A stretch of DNA of 64,000 nt. Origin: Cenococcum geophilum (Eukaryota). Below the pieces are notes generated by a model that was given only the letters and a program-made list of their open reading frames with translations, did no database searches and was not told the origin of the DNA. Below, piece after piece: positions 6,963 to 64,000 of this stretch; the first letter of the stretch is position 1; every line of letters starts with the position of its first letter. The translations under genes were made by a program, and so were the position numbers. The stretch covers positions 20,150,001-20,214,000 of the forward strand of contig CP158635.1 of assembly GCA_050273025.1 (NCBI GenBank), given 5' to 3'.

Positions 6963-9900
6963 CTATCTCCCTCCTCTTTATCTTTATTCTTAAAGATTTA
7001 AAATATCTCTAAGTCGTTTACTAGAGGTATAATATCCGTCTAATTAATTTAGTTAATATTATTGCTTATTATACCTAAAGCAATTTCTTCTTTACACGCC
7101 CAACGTCGTGCTCGCACTATTGCTGTAATATTATCTTTTAGTAAGATTATGCCATCTCCGTATTCTCGTTATTTAAAAGAGGGATTAGTTTATATTACGT
7201 TAGTAAGTCCTTTATCCCGGCAACCTTCCTCTTATTTAAAGTGCACTAAAGCGAATATTTAGTTATCCTATAACGTTCGCTCTACTTCTAATGCTAAATA
7301 TACGCGACCTATTACTCTTAATAGTCGTCTGGTTCCCTAATTAATTTATCTTAGGGTTTTATATTTAATCTGCTGCTGCTTAGCTAGATGGTAAACTATT
7401 ATAAGCCCTTGCTAAGTTAAAACGTTCCTGTAACGCGGAATAGAAGGCCCTAAATACTTAAATTACGGCGTCTACTTATTTACTTCGTCTTAAAAAGGTT
7501 TATAAGAAGGTCTATTCTAAGGAGTAAAAACTTATAAAATAAGGTCTATAGGAACTAGGTAATAAAAGAACGGATTCTCTTCTAATAGAGAAGGAAATAG
7601 ATCTAAATAGTTCGGCAACTGCTCTTTTTAGGTCCCCCTTAGGTGACTTATTCTTTAGCAATTCTTTTTTATTAATACTACCTAACCTAATCTCTTCCGA
7701 TACTCCTATACCTTTTCTATAACGTTCTTTAAATTCTCTAGTAGCTCCTAGGTAGTCTTAGTATAGCCTATCTACTTAACCTTATACTATATTTCGTTGT
7801 CAATGTCCTTATAATTAACGATCTTTAATACTTACTATTTGTCTTCTTCTTATCCTCTATACGTGTCTGCTTTATAAACCAGTAGCTTAATATTCCTATA
7901 TACTAGCTCTAGTATTACAATGTGCTATATAGGGTAGATCTTCATTTTAGCTAGTAGGTTTAACTTAAACGTAACCGGTGAAATCCTCTATATAATTTCG
8001 AAAGGTCCTAGTCTAATATAGTCCAATTTCTTACTTAGTTATTAACTCTTAAAATTTTTGTATAGTAGCTATACTTTATCTCCCTCCTTAAGATCTAGTC
8101 CCTTAGATCTCTTAGCATTATAGTACTTTTTTATTCTCTTTTATACTTTCTTTACTAATTCCATAAGGTTTATATAAAGATTTATTAATATCTTTATTCT
8201 CTCTTTAGCTGTACTACTCGTTTTCTTTACTTACCGTAGTAATAACGATGTTTTTAGCTTATATCTATAATTTGCCTTAAATAGTAATGTGCCTATTCCT
8301 TCTTAAGGTGTTGTATTATATATAAACTATATAACTAGTAACAGTAATACCTAATTATTCTATGCATAATTGATATAATATCTTAGATACTATTCTAGCG
8401 TCTAATTTAATCTTTCTGTTTAACCGTCTGTCTGCGGATAATATACGGTAGAAGTTACTACTTAAACTCCTTACTCCGCTAAGAACACTTCCTAGAATAC
8501 TACTATAAATCTTAAATCTCTATCTAATATAATTTTACTTAGTGCTCTATGTCTTATAAACACTTCTTTAATATAAATTCTAGCAACATCTTCTGCTAAG
8601 ATTTCTTCTGTACATACTATAAAGTATCCCCACTTCATAAGCTTATCTACTATTACTAAGATTACGTTATAATCTTATCCGGTAATAGGGTCTTTTAATT
8701 TTAGTAACTTAATAATAAAGTCCCATAATATAACCTCCTATGGTCTCTCTGGTATTTTAACAGGTTATAGCCCTCCATATGGCTTATACCTTATTAGTTT
8801 ATTCCTTTAGCAATCTAGATATTCCTTTATAACCCTTCTAGCTATCCTTTAGATTCTATTAATGATGTACTCCTCCTAGAGTCTTAACACTAAGCCCGTA
8901 GCTCTATTATATCCTTAGGTTAGTCCCTTATAGAAGTCCTCTATAAACTGCTCTACTATACTTCTTAGGATATACTTTATTTTTTTGATTCTTGTATATA
9001 TCCGTCTATAGATCTTCTAGCTATGCTTTTAGAATTCTTTGTACCTAAAAGCTTTCTAGTATCTTATAGACTTTCTCTAGTTTGTTATCTTTTTAAGTTG
9101 CTGCGATTTTCGGATGATTATACCTAATTAATCTGTCTATATCTTTTTGCAATAAAGCCCTTAATAGCTTTTCCTTATTTTATAGTTTAGCTTTGCGGCT
9201 TAGAGTATCTACCCGCGTATTGTCTGTACCTTTAGTATGCTAAATCTTGAAATAGTATTCCGTAAGCATCTCTGCCCATCTAACCTATCTTTAGTTAAGT
9301 TCCTTCATTATTAGGAATCCTATTAGGTTCTTATAATCTATCTTAACTATAAATAGTTTCTCTATGCCTTATAAGAATGCTCTCTATTTCTTTAATACTA
9401 TAACTATACCTAATAACTCTTTATTATAGATGTTATAGTTTAACTCCGGTGGTGTTATCTTCCGACTATAGTATACTACTAGGTGCTATCTATCTTAATG
9501 CCTTTATATAAAGCACGCCCTTAGTATATAGTTTAATGCATCTGTTTTTATAACCGTCTCTAGTCCTAGTTAATAGATCTTAAGAACTGGCTCCTAGGTA
9601 AACAACTCTTTAACTTTTTTAAAGAGTTCTCTTTACTCCTTCCCCTATGCCTATAGTTCTTCTTTCTTTATTAACCGTATAAATAGCTTAATGTCCTTTA
9701 ACCATTACGCTATAAACCTTTTATAGTAATTGCAAAACCCTAGGAACGATTTTAACTATATAACGTTCTCTAGTTCCTACTAATTTACTATAGCCTTAAT
9801 CTTCTTTAGATCTATGCTAAGTTAGTTTAGTTTAATAATAAATCTAACGAAATCGGTTTTCTTGGTGAAGAACTCGTATTTCTTAATTGCTATTGGCATC

Positions 9901-55289: not shown

Positions 55290-56497
55290 TTAGATGTTGA
55301 AACCGCCGTGCTTCGCAGCCTCCACAAACCGCCAGAGTCCAGCCTCTTCAGCGGCTTTCCGTACTGATGCCACTTCATCTAAGTTAACAGCTCTGTTTAT
55401 ATCCCCATACCTCACTTTGGCCTTGACTGTCTTAGAAGCTTTTATGCCTCCGCGTGATGGTTTTCCCACATGTGCCCGAGGAAAATACTGTTCCATTATA
55501 TGAACCATGGTATCCAGAGAAACATTCCCTGCGAGCCATTTTACAATTTCTCTGCCTTCATCTTCTTTTCCAGGCATTACCAAGTGTCGAACTAGTACAC
55601 CTTTCTTCGCGATGCCATCCGCAGTAAAACAGAGATCGCCAACCTGCGCATGCATTGCCTTGATACTTTCCATCGCCGTTTCTGTATAGTTATCCGCCTT
55701 CAGGAGCCGCCTGGACGTTTCAGTGTTCCACACCTTAAAGTCTGGTAAGTAAATGTCTACAAGACCATCTAAAAGTTTCAAGCTTTCGAGAGAATCAAAA
55801 GAGGATGTGTTGTATATGATGGGCAATCTGAGGCCTAGTTCCCGGGCATGAAGGATAGACAGTGCGACTTGAGGGACGACGTGTTCGGGAGTGACGAGGT
55901 TGATATTATGCACTCGGCCCACCTCTTGTAATTTCATGTACCACTCTGCAAGCTCCTCGGGAGTAAGGTCGAACCCGTTTCGCTGATGTGCAATGTCATG
56001 GTTTTGACAAAAGACACATCGCAGGTTACAGCCGGAAAAGAAGACGCTGCCAGAGCCGTTGTGTCCTTGAATGCATGGTTCTATACATTGCTATAGGTTA
56101 ACGAGTCAAATTCCGATTATGCTGTATTTGATTGAAGAACGTGTTGGCTATTGAGGAATAATGTTCAAATACACGCCTCACCTTCCCCAAAGTGCGGAGC
56201 TATCGTATTGACCTTGACTGTTTCAGCACCGATGAGACACACTCCTGTCTTCTCGTATCTGTTCACACCGCACAGTCTTGGGCAAAGATTACAATTGCGC
56301 AAATGGGCGTAAGCTTCAGACCTCTTCTTTGCTGCGTCGATGGAGGATATTAGATGATGGCGGGGAATGTAGCGGTCGAGGAGGAACGGAGGGGCAAGGT
56401 GGAGCCAGCGCGAGGAGGGTTGTGGCTGCCGTATGGAGGTGGGGATTGATCGTTGGAAGGGCCTCTTTGGGAGGGAGGACGGGAATGATTTGGGCAT
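55290..56497 (-). CDS. Radical SAM protein, PflX/PFL-activating-enzyme-like family, 368 aa; exons 56497-56182 and 56080-55290
   Basis: ATG at 56497; GT..AG intron 56181-56081; spliced frame gives CNLCPRLC, PHFGEEPCI, CNLRCVFC (CxxxCxxC), NINLVTP, DIYLPDFK, LVRHLVMPG; 1107 nt open, non-RIPed composition. Confidence 0.92.
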
Positions 56498-56859
56498 TGC
56501 CGGTCTACGTGGTCGCGCATCGCAAGAGCCCAGTGTCGATCTAACACTCTTATTGTGGTTTGCAACTGTCGTTTTCAAAATATCGGTAAAAATCGCTAAG
56601 CCGCACGACCTGTATTACCCCAATCAAAAGAATCCTTGGCATGCGGATTTCCAAATTTTGCACCCAAACTCACGTGTAAAACCGTAAGACAACTAACCCA
56701 TTTCCATGTTAAACGCGCCTTATTATCGATATAACGTCCCTATTATTAGTTAGTAAGTTAAAGCTAACATTATTCTACTATTTATTCTATTTTAATGTGT
56801 TTTCTAATATTATAGTATCTTATACTAGGAGGAAATCCAATCTACCACCTCGCTACGCG

Positions 56860-56920
56860 AGGTGGCGTCTCGCTGTCTCGACTCAGGTGGCCTTTCGCTG
56901 TTTTAACTTAGGTGGCCTTT
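56860..56920 (+). repeat. 25-bp tandem repeat (~2.4 units), overlapping a 21-bp hairpin at 56845-56865
   Basis: AGGTGGC starts at 56860, 56885 and 56910; hairpin CCACCTCGC-TAC-GCGAGGTGG. Confidence 0.7.
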
Positions 56921-56921
56921 A

Positions 56922-57406
56922 CAGTGATGTGCACGACCAGCTTCCCCTTTAGCGAGTTGCAGATTCGGTACGCGCATCCAATTTCGCCTGGTTGCCACCA
57001 GCTGTACATCGTAATTGTAGCGAGCGGCTGTGGCTGCACGCAAGGACCTTTTTGGTTGCCCTGGAGAATCGCCTTGGTTGGCCAGGAGAACCAAATCGAA
57101 GACGACGCTTCCTTTTCTCCCCCTTAACTATGCCTCCATTATGCCCGCAAAAACGCGAATACAACGCTGTCTCTGCAGAGAGGTTGACGAAATTTGGCAA
57201 TATCGTACGGGTGGAAGCCTCACGATATTTGACAAAGATCACGACACTGCGGAGGAAGGCCGCCAGAAGTAACGTTCTTGTAGCCAAGCATACGGCTTCG
57301 CTACAATTACTATGTACAGCTGGTGGCAACCAGGCGAAATTGGATGCGCGTACCGAATCTGCAACTCGCTAAAGGGGGGGGTGAAGCTGGTCGTGCACAT
57401 CAATAG
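56922..57406 (-). mobile_element. 485-bp Tc1/mariner-type MITE, un-RIPed
   Basis: ~100-bp TIRs (56925-57023 vs 57298-57402), TA at 56920-21 and 57407-08, CAGTG terminus; 57199-57406 is homologous to the start of the Tc1-like element at 63127-63358. Confidence 0.8.
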
Positions 57407-57407
57407 T

Positions 57408-60263
57408 ATGTCCACGGTTCGATTTGTATGGCTGAATCAGCCGCTGAGTCACGATTTGGCAGGCAGGAGGCCCGTGCGCTCAGTGGCATGTGGATGTTAC
57501 CCCATGTCCACGGTCGATCTTCGATCGCCAGCAACGCCGCAGCAACGTCGCGCTCTTAATACCCGTCAAGCGCTATGCGTAGAGCTGTCTAAGGGCTCTC
57601 TGCTCGCACTAGGATAGTAAGAATTGGCCATAGGTTAATAGAGATATTTACGTTTTAAATTAGGCGCCGCTATTATATAAGTACCCTACTAAACTTATAC
57701 CACACTAAAATAAGCCCCTAAGGGGCTATAGATAAAGGCTTTAAGAGAACTCCTTAGAAGTTAGATATATATACTATTTTAAAGCTTTTCTACCCGCTTA
57801 AAGCCGTTTATAAAGCTAATCTAGCAAGCACTATATCTACTCCTACTGTTAATTAATCTGCTATATAGCCGCTTTCTTACTAATCCTCTAGGCCTACGCG
57901 ACCCGCTTAATCTCCTTAATAACCTTAAGCCGTAGGGAGTACTATTAGAGCTTATTTTGCCAGCTAGCCCGCTATCTACTACCTTATTTAGAATTTAGCG
58001 CTACTATAGAAGGATTACCTCTAAGCCCTTTAGTCTATTTACGCTAAAGGGCCTATACGGACTTTACTGTACGGCATATACAATATACAGGCGGCTACTT
58101 AGGCGGCTGCTTAGGCTTAGGCCCTTACTGCGGCTATAGCTATAGCTATAGCTACAGCAGCGCTAGCGAAGGGGAAGCTATAGCGCTTATCTGGGCCGAT
58201 ATATTCTAGCTTAATTCCGCGATAGATAGAGGCGCTAATAGACGTGCCGTTAGTAGATATGCTATTAGTAGGTATACCGTTAAACGCGAATATATAGATG
58301 CCGAAGGGACCTTAAGCTAAAAGATAAGGCTACTAAATGTAAGCAATTAAAGCTATAAAGACTGCGCCTACTAGGACTCGGCTATACGGTTAAATAACGC
58401 CTATAGCTTACGTGCTTAGGCGTCTATAGTCTTTAGGCGGTCTGTAATAGCTAGTACGGCCTAGTAGAGTATTAATAGCTAGCTAGGGCCTTCTTCCTCC
58501 TACTATAGGTAGGCTTTAACCTTCCGCGCGAAGGGTAGATAGGCCTTATACTAAAAGACTAAGTAGTTCTATATAGGGCTACTTAGGAATATCTTACGGA
58601 GGACTACTAAGTTCTATAGGATAACCTCCTAGAGATAAAATAGGAGGTTTATAGCGCCTATAGCCGCAAGGTTGTTAATCTAGCCGACCTAAGGGCTAAA
58701 CTAACCCTTTTAGACGTCTAGCTCTAGCTAGATTATTAATAGTAGTATATTAGGGGGGGCGACGCTTGCCCTATAAATCTTAAAGCAGCCTATCTACGGC
58801 GAATGGCCGGCTATTATCCGTATAAACTCCCGCGGCAGCGAGTTTAAGTAATAGCCGACTATCTACTTCTAGTTCTACCTACTAGCGCGTTTAATCTAGT
58901 CCTTACTAACCCCTTTTAGCTCCGCTATCTTAGCGCTAGCGCTTTACTTAATATAGGTCTTCTTCTATAAGAAGACGCCGATAGCCTAAAATGCCTTAGT
59001 AACCTACTCCCGCTGCGAGTTATATAAGAAGGCCGTTTTATAGTTTCTAGCGCTGCTCTTAATTAGGCGGATATTATACTACACTAACCGCTTACTAAAG
59101 TCTAGGAATAGCTCGTTGCTAAGGTCCTAGCGGTATAGGAGGTAAAAAGCTAGCCTACTAAGTATATAAATGAGTGGCTTCTTATTACGTAGAGCTCTAA
59201 TAGTCTTAAGGCGGCTATACTAGTTCTACTTACCGGCGCGTGTAGTAAATATTAGGGGTATATAGCGCGTAGGACCTTTTCCCTTAAACTTAAAGGTAAA
59301 TAAGTCTAAGATCTTAGCGGAGCGCCTATTGCCGCCGTAGGTAAGTATATAGTGGCCTAGTAGGATATCTATAAGCGTGTAAAGGTAGTATTCTAGTAAG
59401 GAGTTTCTGCGGGCCTATAGCTCGCGGCAAACGCTTTTAAACTTATCCTCTATATATCCGTTAAGCAGTATATTTCTACCCTTATCTACAAACTACTCCT
59501 TTTTCTACTACGCGTCCCTCTATTATAGAATCTTTAGGTAATCCCTAATATTATCCTCCCGCGGGGACTAGTGGCTATTTATCCCTATACCCTTCTACGT
59601 CTAGTAAAGGTCTATTAGGGTAGTAATATAGCTATAAACTAAGCGTTAGGAGAGCCGCGTCTCGTCCTAAGGTATATTATCGCTAGCCTTACGGCTTTTT
59701 CCTTTTAGTAGCTAGCCTGTAACCTCCTTAATAAGGAAAAAAAGTAGCTTCTCTTCCGTAATAGTATCGCCGTTATAATACTGCTTTTGCTTATAAAAGG
59801 CCTAGAAAGACACGCGTTAGTTATAAGTATACTACTCTGTAAAGCACCTACCTACTTACCTTAAACTTTTTCTACTTTAGCTTATAATTTAGAGACGTGT
59901 TTTTAGGTTTCTTGGAATATATAAGGGTAAGAATACTCTACGCGTTAGCGCGTAGTTTGGTATTATTTATAACGTTAATCTTTACGCAACTAATTAACGG
60001 CATTTTTAAGATATATAGGACGCTACTAGAGAAGCTACGCTATAAGGGGGGGTTCCTATTTTCCTATATACGCAGATATAGACTAGGGAGAAGAGGTAGA
60101 GAAAGCATACCTACCGGATAAGTAATCTTACCGTATAGGGTAAATAAACGGGCGTATGGCTAGGCTAATAGGCTAATAGTACACGCGTATTAGCGACTCG
60201 ATTAGTAGGGGTAAAGACATTTAAAGATGTCTACGGCTTGGCTGTAGGCTCGGCCGTAAACAT
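57408..60263 (-). mobile_element. Crypton (tyrosine-recombinase DNA transposon), left copy, RIPed
   Basis: Mirror image of 60270-63125. Confidence 0.88.
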
Positions 60264-60269
60264 CCGTAA

Positions 60270-63125
60270 ATGTCCACGGCCGAGCCTGCAGCCAAGCTGT
60301 GGACATCTTTAAATGTCTTTACCCCTACTAATTGAGTCGCTGATGCGCGCGTACTATTAGCCTATTGGCCCAGCCATATACCCATTTATTTACCCTATAT
60401 AGTAAGGTCACTTATCTAGTAGGTATACTTTCTCTACCTTTCCTCCTTAGTTTATATCTGCGTATATAGGAAAATAGGAACCCCCCCTTATAGCGCAGCT
60501 TCTCTAGCAGCGTCCTATATATCTTAAAAATACCATTAATTAGTTACGTAAAGATTAATATTATAAATAATACTAAACTACGCGCTAACGCGTAAAGTAT
60601 TCTTACCTTTATATGTTTTAAGAGACCTAAAAATACGTCTTTAAATTATAAGCTAAAGTAGAAAGAGTTTAAGGTAAGTAGGTAGGTGCTTTACGGAGTA
60701 GTATACTTATAACTAACGCGCGTTTTTCTAAGCCTTTTATAAGTAGAAGTAGTACTATAACAGCGATACCGTTATAGAAGAGAAGCTACTTCTTTTTCTT
60801 ATTAAGGAGGTTATAGGCCGGCTATTAAAAGGAAAAAGCCGTAAGGCTAGTAATAATGTGCCCTAAGATAAGACGCGGCTCTCCTAGCGCTTAGTTCGCG
60901 GCTATATTACTACCTTAATAGACCTTTACTAGACGTAGAAGGGTATAGGGATAAACAGCCACTAGTCCCCGCGGGAGGATAATATTAGGGATTATTTAAA
61001 GGTTCTATAACGGAGGGACGCGTAGTAGGAAAAGGAGTAATTTATAAATAAAGGTAGAAATACGCTACTTAACGGATATATAGAGGACGAGTTTAAGAGC
61101 GTCTACCGCGAGCTATAGGCCCATAGAGACTTCTTACTAGAATACTACCTCCGTACGCTTATAGATATCCTATTAGGCTACTATATACTTACCTATAGCG
61201 GCAATAGGCACTCTACCGAGATCTTAAACCTATTTACCTTTAAGTTTAAGGGGGAAGGTCCTACGCGCTATATACCCCTAATATTTACTATACGCGCTAG
61301 TAAGCAGAACTAGTATAGCCGCCTTAAGACTATTAGAGCTCTACGTAATAAGAAGCCACTCGTTTATATACTTAGCGGGCTAGCTTTCTACCTTTTATAC
61401 CGCTAGGACCTTAGCAACAAGCCGTTTCTAGACTTTAGTAAGCGGTTAGTGTAGTATAATATCCGCCTAATTAAGAGCAGCGCTAGGGACCGTAAGATGG
61501 CCTTCTTATATAACTTGCAGCGGAAGTAGGTTACTAAGGTATTCTAGGCCGTCGGCGTCTTCTTATAGAAGAAAACCTATATTAGGCAAAGCGCTAGCGC
61601 TAAGATAGCGGAGCTAAAAGGGGTTAGTAAGGACTAGATTAAACGCGCTAGCAGGTAGAACTAGGAGTAAATAGTTAGCTACTATTTAAACTCGTTGCCA
61701 TAGGAGTTTATGCGGATAATAGCCGGCTATTTGCCGTAGATAGGCTGCTTTAAGATTTATAGGGTAAGCGTTGCCCCCCCTAATATACTACTGTTAACGA
61801 TCTAGCTAGAGCTGGACGTCTAAAAGGGTTAGTTTAGCTTTTAGGTCGGTTAGGTTAATAACCTTACGGCTATAGGCGCTATAAACCTCCTGTTTTATCT
61901 CTAGGAGATTATCCTATAGGACTTAGTAGTCCTCCGCGAGATATTTCTAAGCAGCCCTATATAGAACCACCTGGTCTTCTAGTATAAGGCCTATCTACCC
62001 TTTATATAGAAGGTTAAAGCCTACCTATAGTAGGAGGAAGAAGGCCCTAGCTAGCTATTAATACTCTACTAGGCCGTGCCGGCTATCGCGGACCGCCTAA
62101 AGACTATAGACGCCTAAGCACGCGAGCTATAGGCGTCGTTTAACCGTATAGCCGAGTCCTAGTAGGCGCAGTCTTCGTAGCTTTAATTGCTTACATCTAG
62201 CAGCCTTACCTTTCGGCTTAAGGTCCCTTTGGCATCTATATATTCGCGTCTAACGGCATACCTACTAATAGTACGTCTACCGACGGTATATCTACTAGTG
62301 CCTCTATCTATTACGGAATTAAATTAGAATATATCGGCCTAGGTAAGCGCTATAGCTTCCCCTTCGCTAGCGCCGCCGCAGCTATAGCTATAGCTATAGC
62401 CGTAGTAAGGGCCTAAGCCTAAGTAGCCGCCTAAGTAGCCGCCTGTATATTATATATGCTATATAATAAAGTCCGTATAGGCCCTTTGGCGCGAGTAGAC
62501 TAAAGGGCTTAAAGGTAATCCTTTTATAGTAGCGCTAGATTCTAAATAGGGTAGTAGATAGCGGGCTAGCCGGCAGAACAAGCTCTAATAGTACTCCCTA
62601 CAGCTTAAGGTTATTAAGGAGATTAGGTAGGTTGCGTAGGCCTAAAGGGTTAGCGAGAAAGCGGCTATATAGTAGGTTAATTAACAGCAGAAGTAGATAT
62701 AGTGCTCGCTAGATTAGCTTTATAAACGGCTTTAAGCGGGTAAAAAAGCTTTAAAATAGTATATATATCTAACTTCTAAAGAGTCCTCTTAAAGCCTTTA
62801 TCTATAGCCCCTTAGGGGCTTATTTTAGTGCGGTATAAGTTTAGTAGGGTACTTATATAATAGCGGCGCCTAATCTAAAATATAAATATCTCTATTAACC
62901 TATAGCCAATTCTTACTATCCTAGTGCGAGTAGAGAGCCCTCGGATAGCTCTACGTATAGCGCTTAACAGGTATTAAGAGCGCGATGTTGCTACGGCGTT
63001 ACTAGCAATTAAAGATCGACCGTGGATATAGGGTAATATCTATATACTACTGAGCGCACGGGCCTCCTGCCTGCCAAATTATGACTTAGCGGCTGATTTA
63101 GCCATATAAATCGAACCGTAGATAT
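60270..63125 (+). mobile_element. Crypton (CryptonF-like; Ndc10-type YR domain + Gcr1_C), right copy, RIPed; coding region ~60490-62800
   Basis: Degenerate GNRHSTEILNL (~61200), SKQN*YSR (~61300), KKTYIRQS for the HxxR motif (~61570), ASR*N...YY (~61647-61685); Gcr1_C-like ALWRE*TKGL...*GSR*R (~62480-62565); GTAAGT intron at ~60674. Confidence 0.88.
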
Positions 63126-63126
63126 A

Positions 63127-64000
63127 CTATTAATGTTTACAACTAGCTTCTACCCCCCCCCCAGGCGAGCTTAGATTTTTTTTACGCCATTTAATTTCGC
63201 TTAATTACTACTAACTGTATATAGTAACCGTAGCGAAGCCGTATGCTTGGCTGTAAGAACCCCCTAATCCTGGCGAACTTAAAGCTATTCGCGATCGGCT
63301 TCCCTCCGCAGTATCGTAATCTTTATTAAATATCGTAAGGTTTCTACCCGTACTATATTCGTAATATAGCTCCGCAAATAGGCCTATATTAGCACGCCCT
63401 AATTAAGGATCTTCTTTAACTTAGAGTAACTTGAGCAGAGTGTGCCTTAGCTGCTAGTTATACACCCTAATTAATTACCGCGATTAAGAGGAACTTACGT
63501 ATATTTAGATCAACTTAGGCGCCTTTAAACAGTAAGGGGGGGCAGTTTTTACTAAGCAATCGGATACTCGTGGTAATATTAATGCGGCTAGATAAGAAGC
63601 CAACTCTCTTTAGCAATAAGATATAGTGGTTAATCTACAACACGTTTAATCTCGTAGTTAGCCGCTATATAATATTTTAAAAGCTCTACTTAGCTGGCTA
63701 AACAAGAAAGCGGGTAAGCCAATTAGATCCTCTATAGATAGAGCTTAAAGAGTAGCTTATATAAAGAAGTGTTTCTAGGTAGCCCTCAAACAAAGCGCTT
63801 ACAATCGCGATATATATTTCGCCATTATATTATAGTATACCGCCAATTAGCTTATATTTATAGATAAGTTAAGTATAAATTCAAAGACAGGTGTATAGAA
63901 GACTAGTTAGGCTCCCTCTAGTATTGCACCAATCCTATATACATTATACAATCGGGCTAAGAGGAGGCTTAATATATTACCTACGTATACAATTAACGGC
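63127..64000 (+). mobile_element. Tc1/IS630-type DDE transposon, 5' part, RIPed; runs off the window
   Basis: Begins after TA with a TIR homologous to the MITE; frame AN*LIFIDKLS...KTS*APSSIAP...RLNILPTYTING (63842-64000) fits QLVFVDES...GWAP...ILPAYT. Confidence 0.75.

Follow-up and report, generated by a model that had tools for sequence, protein, structure and literature searches.

The palindromic locus at 57391..63142 of the 64,000-nucleotide stretch analysed here (the window) consists of two RIP-killed CryptonF copies (NDC10_II plus GCR1_C) arranged head-to-head, and the 10-bp word that recurs within it, CCGTGGAYAT (reverse complement ATRTCCACGG), is, judging from the alignment of related copies, a true motif of the element ends that is conserved throughout this CryptonF family. 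By the same comparison the centre of the palindrome is an internal inverted repeat, lying 61 nt inside the real 5′ terminus. The two outer joints look like independent insertions rather than mirror copies of each other. The best overall explanation, which we hold to be moderately probable, combines this anatomy with insertion into the tips of two MITEs, a central loss, and RIP.

Assignment of the locus to the Cryptons in the initial annotation was borne out by Pfam searches, in which the recombinase-like NDC10_II domain and the C-terminal GCR1_C domain (PF12550) characteristic of CryptonF were both found in both arms. NDC10_II matched residues 227–576 of the left copy (58539-59588, minus strand; E 1.5e-43) and 60945-61994 of the right copy (plus strand; E 5.1e-42), and GCR1_C matched residues 730–804 on the left (57855-58079, minus strand; E 2.6e-7) and 62466-62678 on the right (plus strand; E 4e-6). 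No further Pfam family was matched in six frames of the left arm, nor by the open reading frames at 55290-55937 and 56165-56578. Both copies are dead, with 79 stop codons in the left copy (residues 100–860) and 80 in the right. Homologues of the window protein (best E 3e-257) nearly all carry both domains, GCR1_C being annotated in 59/63 among those listed, and an intact relative, P0001, is 65% identical to the window read-through. Arg146, Lys149, His241, Arg244, Trp267, and Tyr276 are kept in 15–17 of the 17 aligned homologues, a residue pattern that points to Arg146, His241, Arg244, and Tyr276 as a putative catalytic tyrosine-recombinase set. The alignment profile A1 matches Ndc10 structures (E 1e-5); a phmmer search of P0001 against the PDB gave 0 matches, such that Ndc10 was reached by the alignment profile only.

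The palindrome spans 57199-63359 at 88% identity by blastn, and a repeat search places its arms at 57374-60263 and 60270-63159, with 6 nt between them. The left Crypton copy (57403..60269, minus strand), which includes the 6-nt spacer and lacks the first 61 nt, is 78–86% identical at the DNA level to the listed relatives; the right copy (60270..63130, plus strand) lacks both the 5′ 61 nt and the spacer. The two bodies align over 2861 nt without gaps, and all 294 mismatches are transitions (0 transversions, 0 indels). An assembly artefact was rejected because the arms differ at these 294 RIP-type positions; none of the contigs listed spans the axis. Palindromic homology continues for ~200 nt past the outer sites, where the sequence is a different repeat. 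A transition-tolerant alignment revealed no convincing further palindrome past 63359, and a search of the window, which on the right side ends 640 nt past the palindrome, found neither the missing 5′ linker nor an inversion product.

A complete element of this lineage is ~2.94 kb in length. In gene orientation it starts with GTGTTGACGG (motif c), a short hairpin, and a linker, continues with CCGTCGACAT (d)-TCGCGG-ATGTYSACGG (e)-17 nt-YCGTGRACAT (f) and the gene, and finishes with CCGTGGACAT (a)-GGGGTA-ACATCCACAT (a′), ~80 nt, and CCGTGGACAT (b)-ACTATTG. The three sites at the junctions of the locus, and four extra copies of the 10-mer at 57504, 60227, 60297, and 63020, all lie where the initial annotation had placed them. 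Allowing up to two mismatches, the 10-mer has 12 matches across the window versus 8.6 expected, a number reached by 12/100 shuffles, and the window-wide count on its own is not significant; 10 of the 12 matches fall in 56927-63125, and exact copies number 3 versus 0.12 expected (P about 3e-4). Since the region is a palindrome, its centre is bound to be flanked by inverted 10-mers and each left-arm copy to have a mirror partner, and the independent positions of the word per unit are four (b, a, f, and e) plus the flanking half-site.

The initial annotation had proposed the 10-mer as the recognition motif of this Crypton, to be judged by its presence at the ends of related elements, and this test does not refute the proposal. 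Comparison was made with 75 metagenome loci, with motif counts taken on 22 full-length copies. With at most one mismatch the word is matched 28 times in these 22 copies, always in a terminal region and never in the body, and with RIP tolerance b is found in 22/22, a in 22/22, and f in 20/22. It occupies the 3′ tip (b, then ACTATTG) and also forms two inverted pairs, one subterminal (a-a′) and one at the 5′ end (e-f). Both pairs, and b with its heptamer, are retained in subfamily 2 and in the more distant lineages L006, L008, L009, and L030. In the left arm the a-a′ pair lies at 57488..57513 (minus strand; CCGTGGACAT-GGGGTA-ACATCCACAT in gene orientation), and its RIPed mirror image in the right arm is at 63020..63045 (plus strand; CCGTGGATAT-AGGGTA-ATATCTATAT); the pair is conserved across lineages and is perfect in L008 (CCGTGGATAT-GGGGCCC-ATATCCACGG). 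The left-arm e-f pair (60227..60263, minus strand) comprises f at 60227-60236 and e at 60254-60263, inverted and 17 nt apart; its right-arm equivalent (60270..60306, plus strand) comprises e at 60270-60279, an exact ATGTCCACGG, and f at 60297-60306 (CTGTGGACAT). Relatives keep this pair with 16–18 nt between the motifs.

The distribution of CCGTGGAYAT suggests that it is probably a binding site for the Crypton’s protein, either for its tyrosine-recombinase part or for its GCR1_C domain. The word could also serve transcription or another purpose. If the 10-mers were conserved cis-regulatory or structural parts (promoter, terminator, or hairpins), recombination would need only the short TG-containing repeat already described for Cryptons, a proposal consistent with the position of e-f upstream of the gene within a longer inverted repeat (arms ~15–19 nt), with conservation between subfamilies of the whole 3′-terminal 50 nt, beyond b, and with the definition of Crypton ends so far by 4–6-bp repeats only in the available part of the published description (PMC3212892). 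We regard it as unlikely, however, given that the word occurs 6–7 times within ~130 nt of each end, in both orientations and nowhere in the body, that it directly adjoins the exchange point at the 3′ end, and that the preferred target tip resembles the 5′-end word.

The unit joint in relatives is the 27-nt sequence CCGTGGACAT-ACTATTG-GTGTTGACGG (b-ACTATTG-c). Fifteen subfamily-1 unit joints were mapped, in 9/75 loci, and b-ACTATT-RGTGTT was read in all 13 of the joints listed, which come from 8 loci. At the 14 outer 5′ boundaries, 13 of which come from a single metagenome (Ga0307507, probably one fungal genome, although the flanks differ), conserved sequence begins at TG-GTGTT, with T at −2 in 14/14 and G (11) or A (3) at −1. 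Of the 14 outer 3′ boundaries, 13 carry the b motif plus ACTATT(G/A), and ATGT then follows ACTAT-TG in 9/13. The relatives thus have a short direct repeat at their ends and no long terminal repeats; the window copies lack their 5′ ends. The pentamer ACTAT is carried by 0/14 outer 5′ joints versus 13/14 outer 3′ joints, only the final TG being common to the two, so that a spacer identical in both partners, as in loxP-like exchange, is not found. From these boundaries the exchange point appears to lie at or next to the TG that closes the 7-nt spacer on its right, and not across the spacer. With arms of 10 bp, the b-c joint is 7/10 symmetric in subfamily 1 and 4–5/10 in subfamily 2.

The central site of the window (60254-60279) reads CCGTAAACAT-ccgtaa-ATGTCCACGG, with its 6-nt spacer forming the palindrome axis at 60264..60269 (TTACGG on the minus strand). 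In the alignment TTACGG is a RIP-type derivative of the TCGCGG or TCGCGA spacer of relatives, which sits between the internal motifs d (CCGTCGACAT) and e. The CGCG core of the TCGCGG spacer is itself palindromic. Upstream of d, relatives have 61 nt (c plus the hairpin linker) that are missing from both window copies; two contigs matching from 60270 onward have the normal linker before that point, and on the central side more than 20 related copies cease to match the window at 60266-60279. The d-TCGCGG-e arrangement is present in five unduplicated relatives (L017, L040, L066, L027, and L009). The d-e pair is 9–10/10 symmetric in near relatives only, and since more remote lineages have no recognisable motif d, the family as a whole does not share the central site. 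As an alternative crossover, the 6-nt centre and CCGTGG were considered as the terminal direct repeat and dropped, the true ends being given by the relatives.

The initial annotation had placed loxP/dif-like core sites at all three junctions of the dimer. Taken in full, this reading would make them equivalent unit junctions between complete Cryptons, with a centre made by the recombinase and ATGTCCACGG serving as both arms of each core. Inverted 10-mers do flank 6–7-nt spacers at all three places, the motif is conserved in relatives, and it is at the outer sites that the match to relatives breaks off. Equivalence of the sites is nevertheless highly improbable: the first 61 nt are missing from both copies, the counterpart of the centre in relatives is an internal site, the outer half-sites are part of a separate high-copy MITE, and the true unit joint is b-ACTATT-c in 13/13 of the array joints listed. 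The spacers also differ (ccgtaa versus actattg), so the three sites could not all exchange in a loxP-like manner.

The left outer joint (57391..57417, minus strand; TCGTGCACAT-caatagt-ATGTCCACGG) is attR-like and is made up of a MITE half-site (TCGTGCACAT, 57391-57400), a shared CA (= TG, 57401-57402), the Crypton 3′ pentamer ATAGT (= ACTAT, 57403-57407), and motif b (ATGTCCACGG, 57408-57417). Homology to more than 20 related copies ends exactly at this site (57397-57402), and the transition-only identity between the arms ends there too. The right outer joint (63116..63142, plus strand; CCGTAGATAT-actatta-ATGTTTACAA) consists of motif b (CCGTAGATAT), ACTAT, TA (a RIPed TG), and the half-site of a second MITE (ATGTTTACAA), with the relatives’ homology ending at 63131-63137. 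Description of the right site as RIPed holds for its transitions, but a G-to-T transversion additionally separates its outer half-site from that on the left. The outer halves, which had been read as arms of the Crypton’s own motif, are instead target DNA from a MITE tip.

MITE1 (56922..57402, no strand assigned) has ~100-bp terminal inverted repeats (56922-57023 and 57298-57402; 93% identity by blastn for 56925-57023 versus 57298-57402) and is preceded by TA at 56920-56921; from this TA and the CAGTG tip we take it to be a Tc1/mariner-like non-autonomous element. Its right tip lacks the last 3 nt, the place of which is occupied by the Crypton. An unoccupied copy of the target is provided by the inverted-repeat partner of 57380-57415, at 56910..56936 (plus strand; AGGTGGCCTT-TACAGTG-ATGTGCACGA), in which TA is followed by the intact left tip of MITE1 (CAGTG...). 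The 5′ flanks of two relatives (L066 and L027) end in TACAGTG or TACAGTA, the MITE-tip word of 56920-56926 in the window. The MITE is a separate repeat, much more abundant than the Crypton: summed contig depth, which is not a copy number, is ~40,475 at 57107-57407 versus ~90–100 in the neighbouring single-copy stretch. MITE2 (63131..63359, no strand assigned) is the remnant of a paralogous, RIPed MITE end, inverted relative to MITE1. The MITE tip TG-ATGTGCACGA is similar to TG-GTGTTGACGG at the 5′ end of the Crypton; the full 8/10 match between MITE half-site and motif rests on this genome, because past the heptamer the relatives’ flanks share only AT(G/A)T (9/13), and given ATGT, 4/6 of the remaining positions match the motif (P about 0.04).

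The outer joints appear independent because the Crypton arms differ by transitions only and the MITE flanks by transversions and indels as well (8 transversions plus 7 gap events in 201 aligned nt versus 0/0 in the Crypton body; Fisher 3e-10). Together with the resemblance of the MITE tips to the Crypton 5′ end, insertion into the tips of different MITEs would mean that each outer site is an attR-like hybrid joint of independent origin. A fold-back origin would account for the same palindrome in another way: a single Crypton and one MITE made palindromic by hairpin-primed or template-switch replication at the internal 10-bp repeat, recombinase-free, with the outer sites being one junction seen twice and the flanks diverging later. 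Retention of an asymmetric spacer at the axis is a classic signature of fold-back palindromes, and it is seen here; relatives already have, in single-copy form, a 9–10-bp inverted repeat at the axis position whose 6-nt spacer is the same, and none of the 75 related loci contains a further inverted pair of Cryptons. Against this, on either side identity by descent ends no more than 4 nt from the Crypton end, where 2861 nt free of transversions and indels give way to the 201 divergent nt, while a copied flank should be unchanged; both the flank and the outer limit at 63359 need extra events. A single inverted duplication, followed by ectopic gene conversion of one MITE copy, could also have produced the flank divergence, but overall we consider the fold-back origin rather doubtful.

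In the explanation that we favour, b-ACTATTG-c is the working joint, being the unit joint of head-to-tail arrays and presumably of a circular form too, and exchange with targets takes place at or next to the heptamer-ending TG. At the locus, two Cryptons would have inserted mirror-wise, each three bases inside the tip of a different mariner-like MITE copy. Their facing 5′ ends would later have been lost between the directly repeated d/e 10-mers, so that the axis of the palindrome came to be the internal inverted repeat and its 6-nt spacer. An unstable palindrome centre may have lost this DNA through replication slippage or through cruciform processing, or the recombinase may have acted at the near-symmetric site, and RIP would have killed both Crypton copies afterwards. 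No precursor that combines two insertions with intact 5′ ends was seen. In a more specific version, which we put forward tentatively as a possibility, the protein would read CCGTGGAYAT in a multi-site att region, integrate by MITE-tip mimicry, and also recombine at d-TCGCGG-e, fusing the mirror insertions; if so, the locus would give the first sequence-level core, accessory, and alternative sites for a eukaryotic tyrosine-recombinase DNA transposon.

Our literature search returned no paper in which binding arms or a defined joint are described for Cryptons, or in which the reaction is reconstituted. The conserved 10-bp word, the 27-nt array joint, the joint-like natural target, and the intact protein relatives now provide concrete substrates for assays, and they bear on the DNA-reading ability inherited by the domesticated relatives Ndc10/Cbf2 and Gcr1. 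For annotation, the locus illustrates that what looks like a tidy ‘three-site’ arrangement in a palindrome may be a mixture of true ends, target DNA, and a repeat internal to the element.

CryptonF elements of fungi and oomycetes were described by Kojima and Jurka (2011; PMC3212892, citing Goodwin et al., 2003), in the available part of which the ends are 6-bp direct repeats, e.g. TTGRTA for CryptonF-2_CGlo, with TAACTA also represented, and a circular intermediate is argued by analogy. The present elements resemble these in the TTG-RTG or TG-RTGT at their ends (compare TTGRTA), in a single protein with a tyrosine-recombinase region and GCR1_C, in a length of ~2.9 kb, and in having a short direct repeat at the ends, no long terminal repeats, and a proposed circular intermediate. 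They differ in the two-orientation 10-bp word, the 27-nt joint, the head-to-tail arrays, and the MITE-tip target, none of which appears in the same part of PMC3212892. The window copy is further distinguished as a head-to-head pair without 5′ ends.

Among other long palindromes, fold-back or centre-deleted forms occur in yeast and in Tetrahymena rDNA; as in these, the axis of the locus is a short inverted repeat that existed beforehand and has an asymmetric loop, but its arms end exactly at transposon termini and its flanks are not identical by descent. As in loxP and FRT, the sites of Cre and Flp, putative binding words are inverted around an asymmetric spacer of 6–8 nt; in FRT, too, the word occurs a third time. 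In contrast to these sites, the true joint here is 7/10 symmetric with exchange at one spacer edge, targets lack the same spacer (0/14), and extra copies of the word lie up to 130 nt away; core arms of ~11–13 bp in loxP and dif compare with 10 bp here. Multiple putative protein-binding words on both sides of the crossover, a target that resembles part of the element’s own joint, and head-to-tail stacking at one site are reminiscent of bacterial integrative elements with a complex attP, such as those with lambda-type integrases and the dif-exploiting elements that stack in tandem. Unlike such bacterial integrative elements, the Crypton has a eukaryotic host, belongs to the unrelated Ndc10-like recombinase lineage, has no known accessory proteins, and uses targets that are many and loosely alike.

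Both arms of the palindrome carry the remains of a Crypton gene. With each arm's frame translated through its stops (X at stops), Pfam returned NDC10_II (1.5e-43 and 5.1e-42, one frame per arm) and GCR1_C (2.6e-7 and 4e-6, likewise one frame per arm), which is the CryptonF architecture (Kojima and Jurka 2011; PMC3212892). Both genes have their 5′ ends towards the centre, and each copy holds 79–80 stops within residues 100–860. Of 63 homologues found (best E 3e-257, 65% identity), 17 were aligned; R146, K149, H241, R244, W267 and Y276 are conserved in 15–17 of these, a pattern that we read as the putative recombinase catalytic set, and a profile from the alignment matches Ndc10 structures (E 1e-5). 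The element behaves as a CryptonF in each of the tests applied for this class. Some Crypton proteins bear the public names ‘short-chain dehydrogenase’ or ‘YciI’ (P0012, P0061 and P0032), which are at odds with NDC10_II plus GCR1_C and are probably annotation errors.

The initial annotation proposed loxP/dif-like core sites at all three junctions of the dimer. Reading of the sequence and a pattern search located all three, CCGTAAACAT-ccgtaa-ATGTCCACGG at the centre (60254–60279), TCGTGCACAT-caatagt-ATGTCCACGG on the left (57391–57417) and CCGTAGATAT-actatta-ATGTTTACAA on the right (63116–63142), together with the four extra 10-mer copies that it listed (57504, 60227, 60297 and 63020). Matches with up to two mismatches show no window-wide excess (12 versus 8.6 expected; a count of 12 was reached in 12 of 100 shuffles), and 10 of the 12 are confined to 56927–63125; exact copies number three versus 0.12 expected (P about 3e-4). 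The inverted self-match spans 57199–63359 at 88% (blastn), and a repeat search places its arms at 57374–60263 and 60270–63159, 6 nt apart, with 338 mismatches on global alignment, 327 of them transitions. Because the region is a palindrome, inverted 10-mers at the centre, and a mirror partner for each left-arm copy, arise automatically.

Relatives came from one metagenome scan (75 loci, many of the same family at 78%–86% DNA identity). With up to one mismatch, CCGTGGACAT matched 28 times in 22 full-length relatives, in terminal regions only and never in the body. When RIP-type changes were allowed, motif b at the 3′ tip and motif a, about 100 nt upstream of it, were present in 22/22, and motif f at the 5′ end in 20/22; this tolerant search also gave recurrent matches in the body near 980 (21/22) and near −320 (16/22), which are probably coding or low-complexity coincidences. 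Subfamily 2 (about 70%–74% identity) keeps the 3′ tip CTGTGGACAT-ACTATTG and, close to the 5′ end, carries ATGTCCACAG-16 nt-CTGTGGACAT as a perfect pair. Among more distant, partly un-RIPed lineages, L006 has CCGTGGATAT-ACTACTG and an e-f pair (5′ motifs) spaced 18 nt, L008 has CCGTGGATAT-TCTGTTG as well as CCGTGGATAT-GGGGCCC-ATATCCACGG, the latter perfect, and L009 and L030 have b followed by ACTATTG; a strict match is absent in 9 of the 18 more distant loci, where some contigs may stop short of the ends. Related Cryptons thus keep the proposed recognition motif at their ends, in the full-length copies, in subfamily 2 and in several more distant lineages, and on sequence conservation we regard it as real and terminal.

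The relatives frequently lie head to tail in arrays whose repeat length is about 2943 nt; 15 unit joints were mapped in nine of the 75 loci in subfamily 1 (L023, L040, L041, L043, L053, L058, L066, L067 and L069), and subfamily 2 has arrays in L033 and L045. RIP-type changes distinguish neighbouring copies within an array, which shows that the arrays are not artefacts of assembly. Inverted copies longer than 150 nt occur in none of the 75 loci. Homology to the window always ends at 57397–57402 and, on the other side, at 60266–60279. With RIP changes allowed, all 13 inspected unit joints read CCGTGGACAT-ACTATT(G/A)-(G/A)TGTT.... The 14 outer 5′ boundaries share the start TG-GTGTTGACGG (T at −2 in 14/14; at −1, 11 G and 3 A); ACTAT is absent from every one, and the five bases ahead of TG are variable. 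Thirteen of 14 outer 3′ boundaries finish CCGTGGACAT-ACTATT(G/A), followed in nine of the 13 by AT(G/A)T, after which the flanks diverge. Together, boundaries and joints define the complete element as GTGTTGACGG through ...CCGTGGACAT-ACTAT, which in the relatives has the short direct repeat TG-RTGT at both ends, and the exchange point maps at or adjoining the final TG of the heptamer ACTATTG. The repeat resembles TTGRTA, the 6-bp repeat published for CryptonF-2_CGlo (supplementary file 1 of PMC3212892).

At the left joint the Crypton lies within a presumably mariner-like MITE (56922–57402), three bases in from its right tip. This MITE is preceded by TA, has terminal inverted repeats of about 100 bp (56925–57023 versus 57298–57402, 93%, blastn) and starts with CAGTG, as is typical of Tc1/mariner ends. 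The joint reads ...TCGTGCACAT-CA/ATAGT-ATGTCCACGG, or b-ACTAT-TG-ATGTGCACGA in gene orientation, and the left tip of this MITE is empty (AGGTGGCCTT-TACAGTG-ATGTGCACGA, 56910–56936). Crypton 5′ flanks in L066 and L027 finish with the same tip word, as TACAGTG and TACAGTA, respectively. The outer sites of the initial annotation are real and informative joints, but their outer half-sites are target DNA, the MITE tip, rather than Crypton. In contig run X1, summed contig depth, which is not a copy number, is about 40,475 for the MITE (57107–57407), about 6,200–29,800 for the Crypton body and about 90–100 for a single-copy neighbouring stretch.

Several observations concern the target and its surroundings. 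Cryptons of different subfamilies (L032:4280–4326 and L047:30–80) have identical 5′ flanks save one mismatch in about 45 nt, so one target type is taken by either subfamily. The 5′ flanks of two arrays (L053:455–574 and L063:3391–3510) are mutually reverse complementary along a stretch of about 67 nt, with a local score of 56, which implies that Cryptons reach one short segment from both sides, 5′ ends first. On either side of one solo element (L035:4240–4313 and 7293–7330), the flanks form a 17-nt inverted repeat (CAGCGGGTTAAGGGATA), indicating that this target itself was palindromic. Adjoining the MITE tip on the left, a 25-nt unit (AGGTGGCGTCTCGCTGTCTCGACTC and variants) is repeated two and a half times in tandem (56860–56926), and the last partial copy provides the left half of the empty target. 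Two X1 contigs connect 57397 to 56920 via 8 other letters, both ending CTG, which suggests MITE copies end to end with one TA in common. The un-RIPed single-copy stretch at 55290–56578 (minus strand; X1 depth about 90–100) has two ORFs (215 and 137 aa) that probably belong to a single intron-containing host gene; neither matched a Pfam family.

The two Crypton bodies (57403–60263 versus 60270–63130) align over 2861 nt ungapped with 294 differences, every one a transition, whereas the next 201 aligned nt, in the flanks, contain eight transversions and seven gap events, one of them an insertion of 22 nt (Fisher 3e-10); the earliest transversion is the fifth base past the heptamer (ATGTG versus ATGTT). 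Identity by descent therefore stops at the Crypton 3′ tip on both sides. We interpret the flanks as paralogous MITE copies and the outer joints as independent. A less likely alternative is that one fold-back event duplicated the locus and one MITE flank was later altered by ectopic conversion; fold-back copying of one locus would have brought its flank along unchanged, and the flanks here diverge. At the outer ends RIP has affected mainly one side (57199–57600 versus the mirror stretch 62930–63359): there is almost no mutation in the left MITE and in roughly the first 200 nt of the left Crypton, with 2–8 left-side changes per 200 nt versus 24–26 on the right.

The centre, which had been proposed as a junction between units, is not an element end, since relatives have an extra 61 nt upstream of the position matching the axis. 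This 5′ part comprises word c (GTGTTGACGG), a hairpin (GGCTGAGCG-CC-CGCTCAG...) and a linker, followed by d (CCGTCGACAT), TCGCGG and e (ATGTYSACGG); a search for the 61 nt found no likeness anywhere within the window. Read on the minus strand, the 6-nt spacer is TTACGG, which derives from TCGCGG by RIP-type change and so is part of the left copy. Two contigs from run X8 whose match to the window begins at 60270 have the normal linker ahead of it. Word d is recognisable in nearer lineages only; the e-f pair and TCGCG block are more widely conserved and jointly form a longer inverted repeat. The hairpin stands directly after the 5′ terminal word (e.g. L017:4324–4360) and is kept in subfamily 1, L009 and L027 and, modified, in subfamily 2 and L006. 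We consider the central site to be an internal repeat where a secondary rearrangement took place. The initial interpretation is thus partly supported, as regards the motif and the reality of the outer joints.

In the most likely history, two copies of one Crypton would have inserted mirror-wise at the tips of two facing MITE copies, giving a near-perfect long palindrome with both 5′ ends central. The centre would then have been lost between directly repeated d/e 10-mers, through slippage or cruciform processing of the unstable palindrome, or through the element's recombinase acting on the nearly symmetric internal site, whose spacer core, CGCG, is palindromic; RIP would have followed this loss.

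The likeness to loxP holds in outline only: the arms of the real Crypton joint are imperfectly symmetric (7/10 in subfamily 1, 4–5/10 in subfamily 2), and the partners here do not share a spacer. The Crypton word occurs six to seven times within about 130 nt of each end, in closer likeness to a complex attP. No description of binding arms of such a kind was found in the literature searched, nor in the available part of PMC3212892.
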